Source of the DNA: Chloroflexota bacterium
GTDB taxonomy: Bacteria; Chloroflexota; UBA11872; VXOZ01
Length of the DNA stretch: 64,000 bases
Direction of reading: 5' to 3'
Assembly (NCBI GenBank): GCA_965221905.1
Contig: OZ244922.1
Coordinates: 1 to 64,000 of the forward strand
Under the pieces are notes generated by a model. The model had not been told where the DNA came from, searched no databases, and saw nothing but the letters and a program-made list of their open reading frames with translations. Made by a program: the position numbers and the translations under genes. This document shows, in pieces, positions 9,592 through 62,407 of this stretch; the stretch's first letter is position 1, and each line of letters begins with the position of its first letter.

Positions 9592-9845
9592 GACACTCTT
9601 GCACAGCCCTGGCCGGCAGGCGAAGAGACCCCATCTCCCAAGGAGACCGTTGCATAGCCCTCATTCGTCGCCTCTGAATCCCCTCTCCATCGAGGGAGAG
9701 GGCTAGGGTGAGGGGGTAATCCCCGTCAATCATATCCAGCCCCGCCCGGTTGCTCGTGCTTCACAATGGAGAGAGCTGAGGTGAGGGGCCATCATCACCG
9801 TCCCAGGCCAATTCCGCGTGTTCATCAGAGTTGCGCAGAACTCTG
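9592..9845. mobile_element. Degenerate nested pair of GAGACC-type MITEs
   Basis: Degenerate left TIR gacactcttgcacagc (9592) with an interior resembling the 45062 element. A second left TIR gagaccgttgcatagc (9643) follows its internal ccc(a)tctccc palindrome arm. Degenerate right TIR gttgcgcagaactct near 9830. Confidence 0.5.
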
Positions 9846-23390: not shown

Positions 23391-23489
23391 GAAACCTTTC
23401 CGTCACTCCAGCCAGCCGCGCGAGAATTACTCCCTCTCCCGGCGGGAGAGGGGACTTTCTCGCCTCGGCAAGGGTTATGCAAAGGTCTC
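23391..23489. mobile_element. GAGACC-type MITE, 99-bp short form
   Basis: TIRs gaaacctttccgtcac / gttatgcaaaggtctc; lies between ccctctccc and gggagaggg; interior is a deletion version of the 45062 copy. Confidence 0.75.
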
Positions 23490-44557: not shown

Positions 44558-45061
44558 CTTATTTGCCCTCTCACGTGCCTCGCCGCAGTTTTTCGTCCTG
44601 GTTTCTTGATGATACTGCATTGAGTGCAGTGCGGTTCAAACCTCACCGCCTTGAGCTTCATCCGCTTGCCTACGTCGTTCCTCTGCATATCGGTTATCAC
44701 GTAGGGGCACGACATGTCGTGCCTTACCCTCTCATCGCTGGGGCACATCCAAGAGTGCAGGTAAGCTGGACCTCGGCTCTTTCCTTTACTAGAGCATCGA
44801 GAGTTCTCGAACACTGCCAGCAAGGACGGAGAATAAAGTTGTGGCTGCAACAAAGAGCACCAAACGAGAAATGCGTCACTCCGGCGGAAGCCGGAGTCCA
44901 GAGAGCGGCGGAGTGGAACGCTCCGGTGTCCTAGTATTGGAGTGCATTTGCTGAGTGGCCTCGGCGAGAAGTTCCCAAGTAAAGGCATCTGCACTCGCTG
45001 ACAAGGATTCACCCTCACCCCCGTTTCAAGTACGGGGCAGGCTCTAGCCCTCTCCCTCAAT

Positions 45062-45292
45062 GAGACCTTTGCGTAACTCCGGCCAGCGGGGCAAGAATTA
45101 CTCCCTCTCCATGGGAAGAGGGCTGGGGTGAGGGGATTCCTGCTTATCCTGTCTTTTCTACCTCTAATATCTATACGTAAGTGGGCAAAATCGGTGAAAA
45201 TGGCCCGGATTGCGGGGATTCCCCCTCACCCTAACCCTCTCCCGCCGGGAGAGGGGACTTTCTCGCCTCGGCAAGGGTTACGCAAAGGTCTC
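45062..45292. mobile_element. GAGACC-type MITE, 231 bp, with 6-bp target duplication
   Basis: Perfect 16-bp TIRs GAGACCTTTGCGTAAC / GTTACGCAAAGGTCTC; flanked by CTCAAT on both sides; follows ccctctcc. Confidence 0.9.
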
Positions 45293-45395
45293 CTCAATGG
45301 GACCCTTGAATAGGAACTTATGTAGGAAAGTGCCGAAAAGTGCTTGACTCACTTTCGGCACTATGCTGTGTTATCCTTCAAGTTCAGGAGTATAT

Positions 45396-45647
45396 GACAT
45401 GTCCCGCAAGGCTTCCGGCAAGTCCAACCGTACCTGCATCAGCGTGGTAGAACAGTCCCGCCGATTCCCGGACGACATGACCGCTGAAGCGTGGTACCTT
45501 GCGCACCGGCTTCGAGTCGCGCTGACCGAGCGACAGAACGCGTTTGCCGGCCCGTTGGAAGCCGATGAGACCTACATGGGCGGAAAGCGGCTGCGTAACC
45601 GAGAGCTTATCGCGGACAATGGGCCGGCGTCCGGGGCGTGCGCATGA
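45396..45647 (+). pseudogene. Internally deleted IS1595-family transposase
   Basis: Retains N-terminal FPDD..AEAW, W.LAHR, catalytic FAGPLEADETYMGGK and C-terminal KRLR.RELIADNG, all in frame; AGGAG RBS; IR-like ggaacttatgta at 45313. Confidence 0.85.
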
Positions 45648-48487
45648 CACCCTACGAGTTCATCGACAAGTGGCGAGCCTCCACGCTGACGGAGCGCTCA
45701 GCATCGCAGCAACATTTCCTCGACCTCTGCGAGTTGCTTGGCGAACCCAAACCCGCTGACGTCGACCCGACCGGCGAGACGTACTGCTTCGAGCGGGGAG
45801 CTCGCAAGGACACCGGCGGGGACGGCTGGGCCGATGTCTGGAAGCGCCATCACTTCGCTTGGGAGTACAAGGGGAAGCGGAAGAACCTCGACGCGGCCTT
45901 CGACCAGCTCCGTCAGTACTCGCTGGCGCTGGAGAACCCGCCGCTGCTGATCGTCTCCGACATGCTGCGGTTCCGCATCCGCACCAACTGGACGAACAGC
46001 GTCAGCAGAACCTACGAGTTCGGCCTGGACGACCTGGCTGACGCCGCGACACGCGACAGGCTCAAGTGGGCGTTCTCGGACCCGGAGCGGCTGCGGCCGG
46101 GCGTGACGCGGCAAGCGCTCACCGAACAGGCGGCGCAGTCCTTCGCCGCGGTCGCGCAGGCGCTACGGGAGCGCGGACACGACCCGCGCGCAGTTGCGCA
46201 TTTCGTCAACCGGCTCGTCTTCTGCATGTTCGCCGACGATGTGGGTCTGCTGCCCGGCCACATGTTCACGCGGATGCTGGAGCAGGCGCGGCGCACACCG
46301 CCGCAATTCGCCGAACTTGCCGGCGAACTCTTCCGGGAGATGGCCTCTGGCGGACGCGTCGGCTTCGAGACGGTCGAGTGGTTCAACGGTGGGCTGTTCG
46401 ACGACGACACGGCGTTGCCTCTGGAGAAGTCCGACATCGACACCGTGCTGGCGGCGTCGCGCCTCGATTGGTCGGAGATCGACCCGTCGATCCTCGGCAC
46501 GCTCTTTGAGCGCGGGCTGGACCCCAACAAGCGCGCCCAGCTTGGGGCGCACTACACCGACCGCGACAAGATCATGCTGATCGTCGAGCCGGTGGTGAAC
46601 CGCCCGTGGCTTGCCGAATGGGACGCGGAGAAGGCCGAGATCGCCGCCGAGCTGGAACGTGCGGATGCCGCCAAGTCACCCGCCACTCGCACGAGACGCC
46701 GTAACCAAGCCGAGCAGCGGTATCGGACGTTCCTCGACCGGCTGCGGGCGTTCACGGTGCTCGACCCGGCATGCGGCTCCGGCAACTTCCTATATCTGGC
46801 CCTGCAGGCGCTCAAGGACCTGGAGCACCGGGTACAGCTTGAGGCGGAGGCGTTCGATTTACAGCGCGCGTTCCCGGAAATCGGCCCGGCCAACGTCAAG
46901 GGAATCGAGATCAACCCGTACGCGGCGGAGTTGGCGCGTGTATCGGTTTGGATCGGCGAGATCCAGTGGATGCGTCGTAACGGATTCTCGGAGGTACGAA
47001 ATCCGATCCTCAAGCCGCTCGATACCATCGAGTGCCGCGACGCGATCGTGACGCCAGAAGGCACAGAACCGGACTGGCCGGAGGCGGATGTGGTAATCGG
47101 CAATCCGCCGTTCCTGGGCGACAAGCTACTGCTCCGCAATCTCGGAAACGACTACGTGTCACGCCTGCGGAGGACCTACGCCGGTCGATTGCCCGCACAA
47201 GCCGATCTAGTCTGCTACTGGTTCGAGAAGGCTGCCAAGCAGATCCAGGCTGGCAAGGCGACACGAGCCGGTCTCGTTGCAACAAACTCGATCCGCGGTG
47301 GACCCAATCGAGACGTGCTGGACCGAATCGTCCGGGACGCTGCGATCTTCGAGGCCTGGGCCGACGAACCCTGGGTGGTCGACGGTGCCGCCGTTCGAGT
47401 CTCGCTCGTCTGCTTCGCGTCACAAGACTCAGGCTTGCCCATTCACCTTAACGGAGAGAACACCGACCGGATCGGTCCTGACTTGACCTCCCGCGTTGCA
47501 GATCTAACAACGGCGGTGAGATTGGTTCAGAATAGCGACACGGCTTTCGTCGGCGACCAGAAGGCGGGACTATTCGACATTCACGGTGACTTGGCAAGAG
47601 AGTGGCTGCAGCTTCCAGCCAACCCCAACGGTCGGTCGAACACGGACGTTCTCAAGCCCTGGGTAAACGGGATGGACCTGACCCGCCGGCCGGCAGGCAA
47701 GTGGATCATCGACTTCGGATGGCAGATGTCTGAGGCTGACGCGGCCCTGTACGAGGAGCCATTCCGATGGGTGCAGGAGCACGTCTACCCTTCGCGTCGC
47801 CACAACAACCGCGCGGCCTACCGCAAGCACTGGTGGCGACACGGCGAGCCGAGACAGGGCATGTGGCGGGCGCTAAAGGAGCGTCGAAGGTACATTGCAA
47901 CGCCTCGCGTTGCCAAGCACCGCCTATTCGTTTGGCTCGATGCTCGCGTCTGTCCCGACTCAGCAACGATCGCCATCGCCCGCGACGACGACACGACGTT
48001 TGGGATCCTGCACAGCCGGTTCCACGAAGCCTGGTCGCTCCGGCTCGGGACGAGTCTGGAAAATCGGCCCCGCTATACGCCGACTACCACCTTCGAGACG
48101 TTCCCGTTCCCGCCCGGCCTGACGCCGGACGTGCCCGCGACCGAGTACGCCTCCGACCCGCGTGCGCTTGCCATTGCGGCCGCCGCCCGGCGGCTCGTAA
48201 AGCTGCGCAACCGCTGGCTCAACCCGCCCGAGTGGGTCGAGTGGGTTGACGAGCCGGTTTCCGGTTTTCCGAAGCGGCCCGTTTCGCGCGACGAGGCGGC
48301 GGCGAATGCGCTCAAGAAACGCACGCTGACGAACCTCTACAACGACCGCCCGCAGTGGCTCGCCGATGCTCACGAAGCCCTTGACGCCGCTGTGGCTGCC
48401 GCATACGGTTGGCCGGCGGACATTTCGAAAGACGACGTTCTCCACGAGTTGCTGGCGCTCAACGGCGGCGCGGCCAGCCACGTTTAG
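45644..48487 (+). CDS. MmeI-like type IIG/IIL restriction-modification enzyme (nuclease + N6A MTase + TRD)
   Basis: ADVWK...WEYK nuclease motif; GAHYT; VLDPACGSGNF; GNPPF; RYTPTTTFETFPFP; ATGA overlap with the transposase stop. Confidence 0.92.
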   Translation: MTPYEFIDKWRASTLTERSASQQHFLDLCELLGEPKPADVDPTGETYCFERGARKDTGGDGWADVWKRHHFAWEYKGKRKNLDAAFDQLRQYSLALENPPLLIVSDMLRFRIRTNWTNSVSRTYEFGLDDLADAATRDRLKWAFSDPERLRPGVTRQALTEQAAQSFAAVAQALRERGHDPRAVAHFVNRLVFCMFADDVGLLPGHMFTRMLEQARRTPPQFAELAGELFREMASGGRVGFETVEWFNGGLFDDDTALPLEKSDIDTVLAASRLDWSEIDPSILGTLFERGLDPNKRAQLGAHYTDRDKIMLIVEPVVNRPWLAEWDAEKAEIAAELERADAAKSPATRTRRRNQAEQRYRTFLDRLRAFTVLDPACGSGNFLYLALQALKDLEHRVQLEAEAFDLQRAFPEIGPANVKGIEINPYAAELARVSVWIGEIQWMRRNGFSEVRNPILKPLDTIECRDAIVTPEGTEPDWPEADVVIGNPPFLGDKLLLRNLGNDYVSRLRRTYAGRLPAQADLVCYWFEKAAKQIQAGKATRAGLVATNSIRGGPNRDVLDRIVRDAAIFEAWADEPWVVDGAAVRVSLVCFASQDSGLPIHLNGENTDRIGPDLTSRVADLTTAVRLVQNSDTAFVGDQKAGLFDIHGDLAREWLQLPANPNGRSNTDVLKPWVNGMDLTRRPAGKWIIDFGWQMSEADAALYEEPFRWVQEHVYPSRRHNNRAAYRKHWWRHGEPRQGMWRALKERRRYIATPRVAKHRLFVWLDARVCPDSATIAIARDDDTTFGILHSRFHEAWSLRLGTSLENRPRYTPTTTFETFPFPPGLTPDVPATEYASDPRALAIAAAARRLVKLRNRWLNPPEWVEWVDEPVSGFPKRPVSRDEAAANALKKRTLTNLYNDRPQWLADAHEALDAAVAAAYGWPADISKDDVLHELLALNGGAASHV

Positions 48488-48686
48488 TAGTCACCGTAAA
48501 ATCCCCCCCCGGTCTATACATCTATACAATACGGGGTTGAGGGTGAATCCTCGTCAATCCAACCCAATCCCGCTTGCTTGGCTGAGTTATTCAAAGGTCT
48601 CCTATGGTCGTACGCGGTCTTTTGTGCAAGCATGTGGTCGACCCTTTAACCCCTTCCTATAGCCCAATCCGGGCTAGAGTAAGAGA

Positions 48687-61131: not shown

Positions 61132-61260
61132 GAAAAACCTTACATGAACCCGGCCAGATGTGAAAAATCCCCTCTCACTGAGGGAGAGGGCTAGGGTGAG
61201 GGTGGATCCTCGTCAATTTGACCCAATTTCGCTTGCTTATACGAGTTAAGCAAAGTCTTC
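61132..61260. mobile_element. Degenerate GAGACC-type MITE
   Basis: Follows ccctctccc; internal ccctctc..gagagggctagggtgaggg; right end homologous to 48533-48601. Confidence 0.6.
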
Positions 61261-62267: not shown

Positions 62268-62407
62268 GAGACCTTAGAGATACCCCTTCCCCCTCGACGG
62301 GGGAAGGTCGGGATTGGGGTGAAAAGGGCTTCACGGCAAGGATCCACACACTTCCCGCCCCCTGGATTCCGGCTTTCGCCGGAATGACGGAGTTATTCAA
62401 AGGTCTC
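62268..62407. mobile_element. GAGACC-type MITE, 140 bp, with a different internal REP cargo
   Basis: gagaccttagagatac ... gttattcaaaggtctc; flanks CTCAAT / CTCGAT inside ccctctcc...ggagcggggg. Confidence 0.8.

Follow-up and report, generated by a model that had tools for sequence, protein, structure and literature searches.

The 231-bp element at positions 45062 to 45292 of the window (the whole stretch of DNA that was analysed, 64,000 nucleotides in length) is a MITE, having inverted ends, flanking direct repeats, a small size, multiple copies and a partner insertion sequence (IS) with the same ends. In our main reading, to which we give a probability of roughly 0.85, the MITE is non-autonomous and related to a 1.2-kb IS of the ISNme1/ISPg1 type (IS5 family), with ends beginning GAGACCTTTGC, which lands in hairpin palindromes with cuts set by the palindrome arms. 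The MITE family is real, its target and its partner are identified, and it is a case of REP-targeting transposition. REP-targeting IS and MITEs are themselves already known, and the new point is that the length of the target duplication is set by the target hairpin.

The element, an A/B-type MITE to which no strand is assigned, is bounded by the left terminal inverted repeat GAGACCTTTGCGTAAC (45062 to 45077, forward strand) and by its reverse complement on the right (45277 to 45292, reverse strand), the two matching at 16 of 16 nucleotides. At up to two mismatches, the window holds seven occurrences of this end motif against 0.12 expected, a number reached in none of 100 shuffles. The copies of CTCAAT at 45056 to 45061 and 45293 to 45298 represent a duplicated hairpin loop, which is present once in an intact hairpin elsewhere in the source genome G000 (3411055-3411076). 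An earlier note on this DNA had described the perfect 16-bp ends, the CTCAAT duplication and the CCCTCTCC arm just before it, all of which are in place. The left part of the target repeat (45012 to 45055, forward strand) comprises CCCTCACCC at 45012-45020, an extra small hairpin and the CCCTCTCC arm at 45048-45055, and is a long variant of a BoxC-type unit with an intact counterpart at G000 69480-69542. The right flank, GGGACCCT, is a poor arm, and the window copy thus sits in a half palindrome.

Within the element, two BoxC-type units lie in inverted orientation, one near the A end on the reverse strand (45103 to 45134; CCCTCTCC-atgg-GAAGAGGG, then GGGTGAGGG) and one near the B end on the forward strand (45222 to 45255; CCCCTCACCC-taa-CCCTCTCC-cgccg-GGAGAGGG). 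Of the internal palindromes proposed in the earlier note, that at 45235-45255 is exact and that at 45103-45122 is an imperfect hairpin. There is no transposase in the element, the longest overlapping ORF being 61 aa, and a search of Rfam returned no RNA family match at E values up to 0.1. As single-stranded DNA the whole element is predicted to form a single, long and imperfect hairpin (-60 kcal/mol, z -5.7). The surrounding block from 44659 to approximately 45311 contains two further short dispersed repeats (matches at block positions 37-87 and 206-259). A 94-aa ORF (45363-45647) lies shortly downstream of the MITE, followed by a 949-aa ORF (45638-48487) which by eye resembles a DNA methyltransferase or restriction enzyme.

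Related unstranded copies in the window include a 99-bp short A/B form (23391 to 23489), consisting of an A end, one hairpin and a B end between CCCTCTCC and GGGAGAGGG; a 140-bp C/D-type MITE with the same ends (62268 to 62407), inserted in a CCCTCTCC/GGAGCGGG hairpin and bordered by the repeats ctcaat and ctcgat; and a degenerate older copy (61132 to 61260) after CCCTCTCC-ctatg. A lone end of a further subfamily lies on the reverse strand at 48586 to 48601. The three copies had been listed previously along with a nested pair at 9592/9643, which proved too degenerate to confirm. The suggestion that interiors differ between copies holds, as the 140-bp copy contains the hairpins CCCCTTCCCCC/GGGGGAAGG and ATTCCGGC/GCCGGAAT and is unlike the 231-bp copy internally.

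The source genome, a single 3.52-Mb contig of 58% G+C, contains 47 MITE ends at up to two mismatches in the end motif, and the A/B-type copies are only 88-91% alike. The ends come in pairs with direct repeats, as at the full copies 893974-894211, 1525749-1525981, 2815133-2815364 and 3109266-3109484, each of which has CCCTCTCC plus a loop at one edge and, at the other, an identical loop followed by GGAGAGGG (loops ctcgat, ctcgg, ctgat and attgag, respectively). The end motif was present in all 16 same-genus genomes, across which MITE copies are numerous, as well as in two other families within the class, while a reversed control pattern occurred zero to one times per genome. Different MITE types were also observed in one hairpin loop in different species, both at the site of the 3109266-3109484 copy (L093) in comparison with G004 and at the L091 site in comparison with G008 and G015, with the flanking loop identical on one side across species in both instances. 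This could reflect either the reuse of loops as hot spots or the swapping of elements by recombination.

An element encoding a DDE transposase and bounded by the same ends, for which the earlier note had suggested looking, is present in relatives. Seven copies of a 1190-bp IS were found in G021 and five copies of a 1217-bp IS, with an open 322-aa frame, in the same-genus genome G004. The transposase scores 289 bits on the IS5-family model NCBIfam NF033581 (cut-off 140), with 109 bits for the domain DDE_Tnp_1 (PF01609) and 81 bits for DUF772 (PF05598), and proteins at least 61% identical to that of G021 occur in eight of the 16 same-genus genomes. The previously noted resemblance of the termini to those of the IS5-family element IS1106 is borne out by a match to the first 12 nucleotides of the ISNme1 end, as given in the available part of PMC4596501. 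One feature departs from the IS5 family, for which a fixed short target duplication per subgroup is expected, in that near-identical copies here have duplications of 4-9 bp. The earlier note found no cognate transposase in the window, and this extends to the whole source genome, in which no transposase with these ends was found; its nearest IS5-family relative encodes a protein only 33% identical and has other ends. The partner IS is apparently intact in sister species and absent from G000, and with no transposase there, the window copy may no longer be able to move. An 11-copy IS of G000 was considered as a partner and rejected as its ends (GGAAAACTCTGAAC...) differ and its target is of the YTAG type. 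This is a 1197-bp IS5-family element with a 335-aa frame, located at 157752-158948 and in 10 more places, the copies being 99.75-100% identical.

The flanks of the ends were non-random, as the earlier note had supposed, the CCCTCTCC arm (at most one mismatch) lying 3-9 nt before 28 of the 47 ends in G000 compared with 765 of 200,000 random positions. The spacing in these 28 was 4 nt once, 5 nt in 14, 6 nt in 12 and 7 nt once. In a survey of 66 distinct full-length IS sites, 44 copies were in palindromes, defined by arms matching at 7 or more of 8 positions, as were 460 of 20,000 random positions. The parse that maximised arm length was used only for this in-palindrome count; since arm and repeat share the closing C:G pair, it split the flanking repeats. 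Pooling of IS and MITEs gave 55 distinct elements whose exact flanking repeat was at least 5 nt long; 39 of these had arms with at least 6 of 8 positions complementary, compared with 125 of 20,000 controls, and 16 were without good arms.

The arms vary by genome and include CCCTCTCC/GGAGAGGG, ATTCC(C/T)G/C(G/A)GGAAT, CCTGCCCC/GGGGCAGG and CCTTCCCC/GGGGAAGG. In the source genus the target is the BoxC/PIT-type unit CCCTCACCC-NNN-CCCTCTCC-loop-GGAGAGGG, and in other Dehalococcoidia genomes ATTCCCG-type or CCTTCCCC-type repeats. G000 retains 50 intact CCCTCTCC-N(4-8)-GGAGAGGG hairpins, most of them preceded by CCCTCACCC and some with loops identical to those found as flanking repeats.

The target duplication was constant in kind, being the hairpin loop, and variable in length, so that the consistency asked of it in the earlier note was found in the first respect and not in the second. 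Exact repeats in the 55 pooled elements were of 5 bp in 23 cases, 6 bp in 19, 7 bp in six, 8 bp in six and 9 bp in one, and one further case of 4 bp is backed by empty sites (the G004 IS described below, with cccg twice). Across the 66 IS sites, an exact repeat of at least 4 nt was present at 30 (4 bp at one, 5 bp at five, 6 bp at 13, 7 bp at four, 8 bp at six and 9 bp at one), 23 of them directly bracketed by arms in which at least 6 of 8 positions pair, and the remaining sites comprised seven with one mismatch in the repeat, 11 with mutually inverted loops and 18 with no repeat. Among the inverted-loop sites, L164 and L165, which lie in opposite orientation in one Dehalococcoidia genome, are the only pair accounted for by a flank swap, which restores exact repeats of 8 bp and 7 bp, the latter bracketed by 15-nt perfect arms; their reciprocal flanks fit an inversion of approximately 290 kb between the two copies.

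Repeat length followed the host hairpin and not the element. In G004 two IS copies sharing 99-100% identity are flanked one by a 4-bp and the other by an 8-bp repeat; one genome (L132-L139, L172) has repeats of 6-9 bp and intact repeats in the same flanks with 7-8-nt spacers; and another (L117, L129, L142, L144, L146, L158) has repeats of 6 or 7 bp and intact-repeat spacers of 6 nt. As the repeat corresponds to the arm-to-arm spacer even in near-identical copies, the cuts appear to be set by the arms and not by a fixed stagger. The repeat begins with C in 48 of the 55 pooled elements and ends with G in 42, indicating that it consists of the loop together with the closing C:G pair. Among more distant plasmid relatives, an IS from Rhizobium with 45% identity lies in the site CACTTCTCCC-cgacg/cgacg-GGGAGAAGTG, plasmid relatives with GAGACC-type or GAGGGC-type ends have 5-bp repeats, two without a palindrome and one with partial arms (approximately 6 of 8), and a Mesorhizobium relative with GGGCC-type ends has a 6-bp repeat. 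Since the plasmid relatives mostly have 5-bp repeats without a palindrome, the plain stagger of the clade is probably 5 bp, overridden at hairpin targets. The stricter proposition that non-palindromic sites always give 5 bp was rejected, since poor-arm sites gave 5 bp in nine cases, 6 bp in three and 7 bp in four.

Two orthologous sites with an intact hairpin and a single loop provide the empty sites for which the earlier note had called. Where the 893974-894211 MITE of G000 has ctcgat twice, G003 has an uninterrupted CCCTCTCC-ctcgat-GGAGAGGG with ctcgat once, and the orthologous position in G004 and G005 is occupied by a longer, uninterrupted unit variant. Conversely, a full IS in G004 lies between CCCTCTCC-cccg and cccg-GGAGAGGG where G000 (69523-69542) and G005 hold CCCTCTCC-tccg-GGAGAGGG. 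No precise empty site was found in relatives for the window copy. The two closest relatives, G004 and G005, lack approximately 650 bp from 44659 to approximately 45311, MITE included, and G015 lacks approximately 44793-45318; as other species retain part of the former segment, the gap is probably a deletion in G004 and G005. There were likewise no empty sites for the copies at 1525749, 2815133 and 3109266, where relatives have larger deletions or another MITE, nor for the G004 IS copy that has an 8-bp repeat, where relatives are without the whole repeat.

These observations are consistent with a mechanism in which the DDE transposase of the IS would move the MITEs in trans, both kinds of element landing in short hairpin-forming palindromes that would be recognised in folded form and not as two half-sites. 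The junctions are anchored at the arms, and the two target cuts would fall at their inner edges, most often between two Cs on each strand. With each strand cut at the 5' edge of the spacer and the gaps then repaired, the whole spacer of 4-9 bp would be duplicated; the spacer-length duplication itself is observed directly at the flanks. Recognition of sequence in place of structure, with each transposase subunit binding a C-rich half-site (approximately T-C-Y-C-C, then C) on its strand at variable spacing and with no hairpin or cruciform involved, would have the same element and target, and is a serious possibility even if we lean against it. The flanks are strongly biased (T at -5 in 83 of 110, C at -4 in 96 of 110, C at -2 in 88 of 110), the repeats mostly run from C to G as counted above, CC tends to precede the repeat even at poor-arm sites, and the isolated target hairpin is by fold prediction not unusually stable (-7.9 kcal/mol, z -0.84), all of which is as expected if bases are read. 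Quite different arm sequences are however used (CCCTCTCC, ATTCCCG, CCTGCCCC, CACTTCTCCC), and, given the general properties of transpososomes, a DDE complex, being rigid, would hardly be expected to accommodate spacings from 4 to 9 bp in ordinary duplex DNA, both of which count against this reading.

A separate question is whether the hairpins inside the MITEs matter to the family. As the MITE has two target units near its ends, copies can be hit again, and nested insertions were observed. In G000 a short A/B element (572878-573127), the uninterrupted paralogue of which is the window copy at 23391-23489, has its internal hairpin interrupted by a C/D element (572932-573077). At G015 L194 there is a two-level nest, where a C/D element occupies a CCCTCTCC hairpin with an exact 5-bp repeat and has its own hairpin occupied in turn by an A/B element flanked by an exact 7-bp repeat. 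The earlier note's recursive nests are thus real at these two places, with the nest it named at 9592/9643 unconfirmed. Its further proposal, that the element spreads palindromes and so makes its own safe-harbour targets, is in part supported by the two units carried and by the nests; in G000, however, only 11 of the 50 exact hairpins are situated 70 nt or less from an element end, so that the MITE is not the chief carrier of the repeat there, with self-made targets only partly demonstrated. Palindrome spreading and a safe-harbour role may accordingly be read into the pattern, and the contrary view, that the internal hairpins are passengers acquired by chance or recombination, conferring no benefit and driving no spread of repeats, with self-targeting a by-product of the hairpin preference, stands at only a little short of even odds. 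It accords with the 39 hairpins distant from any element end, with full-length IS copies in G021 and G004 that lack such a hairpin, and with the reuse of the same loops by different MITE types in different species. It sits less well with the nested insertions and with the presence, in every MITE type seen (A, B, C and D ends), of a subterminal hairpin of an IS-targeted kind. That the whole is not a transposon at all, and instead a mosaic intergenic repeat of REP/BIME or NIME-like kind dispersed through recombination or the action of a REP-associated tyrosine transposase, is very improbable. The genome does contain one Y1 transposase gene (48.2 bits), and tandem arrays and mosaics of units exist; the existence of exact empty sites nevertheless contradicts this account, and these, together with the perfect inverted ends, direct repeats and DDE partner, fit cut-and-paste or copy-in transposition. 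A RAYT was rejected as mover of the MITE, since the sole Y1 gene is flanked by a different repeat and not by the same repeat as in REP/REPIN-RAYT systems. This RAYT-like gene lies at G000 3327899-3328216, with several copies of a GGGGGACAAGCCCCCGCGCTAC-type palindromic repeat in its flanks, to 3328600.

Tandem arrays of a 50-54-bp unit, composed of one MITE end, a loop and one arm, were observed at G000 2034509-2034632 (three copies) and at L103 and L202, both in G015 (five and four copies, respectively). Insertion of a MITE beside an identical internal arm would create direct repeats, and slippage between these may have produced the arrays.

The hairpin units are BoxC/PIT/TMECO repeats, an identification that agrees with the available part of PMC4666352. 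The MITE-internal unit at window 45212-45264 is 86-88% identical over approximately 47 nt to an E. coli dispersed repeat that is present in 5374 of 5426 genomes at a median of 15 places per genome, and the alignment contains the same three blocks (pyrimidine-pyrimidine-purine). Both target and cargo units here share the three blocks of these intrastrand-triplex repeats, of which the hairpin fold alone was computed. The C/D-type MITEs similarly carry their CCCCTTCCCCC/GGGGGAAGG and ATTCCGGC/GCCGGAAT hairpins beside the ends, and the IS targets hairpins of the same kinds elsewhere. The text of PMC4666352, the main survey of BoxC/PIT/TMECO units, as far as available, states that neither transposons nor transposases were detected near them and draws no link to any mobile element, in contrast to the present family, for which BoxC-type units are both landing site and cargo.

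Among characterised elements, IS1126/ISPg1 generates repeats of 5 bp, and IS186 generates repeats of variable length in G/C palindromes. IS1397 and ISKpn1, which occupy palindromic units of E. coli and Klebsiella, resemble the present family as transposons choosing REP hairpins, and land in the hairpin loop with a 3-4 bp repeat. They differ in having an IS3-family transposase and recognising one host repeat, and we know of no target-carrying MITE and no 4-9 bp repeat range for them. IS110-family elements (IS621, ISPpu9, ISPpu10, ISPa11) likewise use REPs as landing sites, but have a DEDD recombinase with a bridge/seek RNA guide and no terminal inverted repeats, whereas the MITEs and IS here have inverted ends, direct repeats and a DDE enzyme. 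Experimental evidence for the choice of REP hairpins by IS1397/ISKpn1 is cited in the consulted portion of PMC1525189.

The closest comparison is with ISNme1/IS1106 of Neisseria and ISPg1 of Porphyromonas, which have an end sequence in common with the present family and an IS5-family DDE transposase, and with which the MITEs ATR and BrickBuilt share ends; the likeness is one of ends and family, and the transposases here are from uncultured Chloroflexota. The ends are given as GAGACCTTTGCAAAA for ISNme1 and GAGACCATTGCA for ISPg1 in Table 2 of PMC4596501, and the same source, in the part available, reports flanking repeats of differing length for MITEs with ends of this type. IS1106 prefers REP-containing spacers (4 of 7 and 7 of 14 copies), according to the available text of PMC1525189. 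Within the accessible portions of these two papers, loop-exact insertion or spacer-length duplication is not described for ISNme1, IS1106 or ISPg1. A literature search, the scope of which did not extend to ISfinder, TnPedia and IS1106 flank alignments, returned no account of loop-length or spacer-length duplication by this IS clade.

In Neisseria, dRS3 hairpins of the ATTCCC...GGGAAT type alternate with RS units of 50-150 bp in variable NIME arrays, for which the available part of PMC1797815 gives no accepted origin. The dRS3-type hairpin is also a target and a MITE-internal unit here, a link drawn from that published description and offered as a lead only. Somewhat doubtfully, it could be proposed that transposases of the ISNme1/IS1106/ISPg1 clade are structure-guided, acting on extruded hairpin or triplex repeats with cuts at the foot of the loop and a spacer-length duplication of 4-9 bp, that nesting and slippage give rise to NIME-like arrays, and that MITEs could seed repeats across distant phyla. 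Because the MITEs carry BoxC/PIT-type and dRS3-type hairpins, they could be the missing vehicle for near-identical repeats in such phyla.

Duplication length that follows the target spacer would be an unusual form of target choice for a DDE transposase, and would offer a straightforward way to interpret mosaic hairpin arrays like the Neisseria ones. Within the source genus, MITEs and half-hairpin flanks account for much of the intergenic variability, which is of use in annotation. From E. coli to Chloroflexota, BoxC/PIT/TMECO repeats show near-identity, and with the same BoxC-type units serving as both landing site and cargo of a transposon family, their spread becomes testable.
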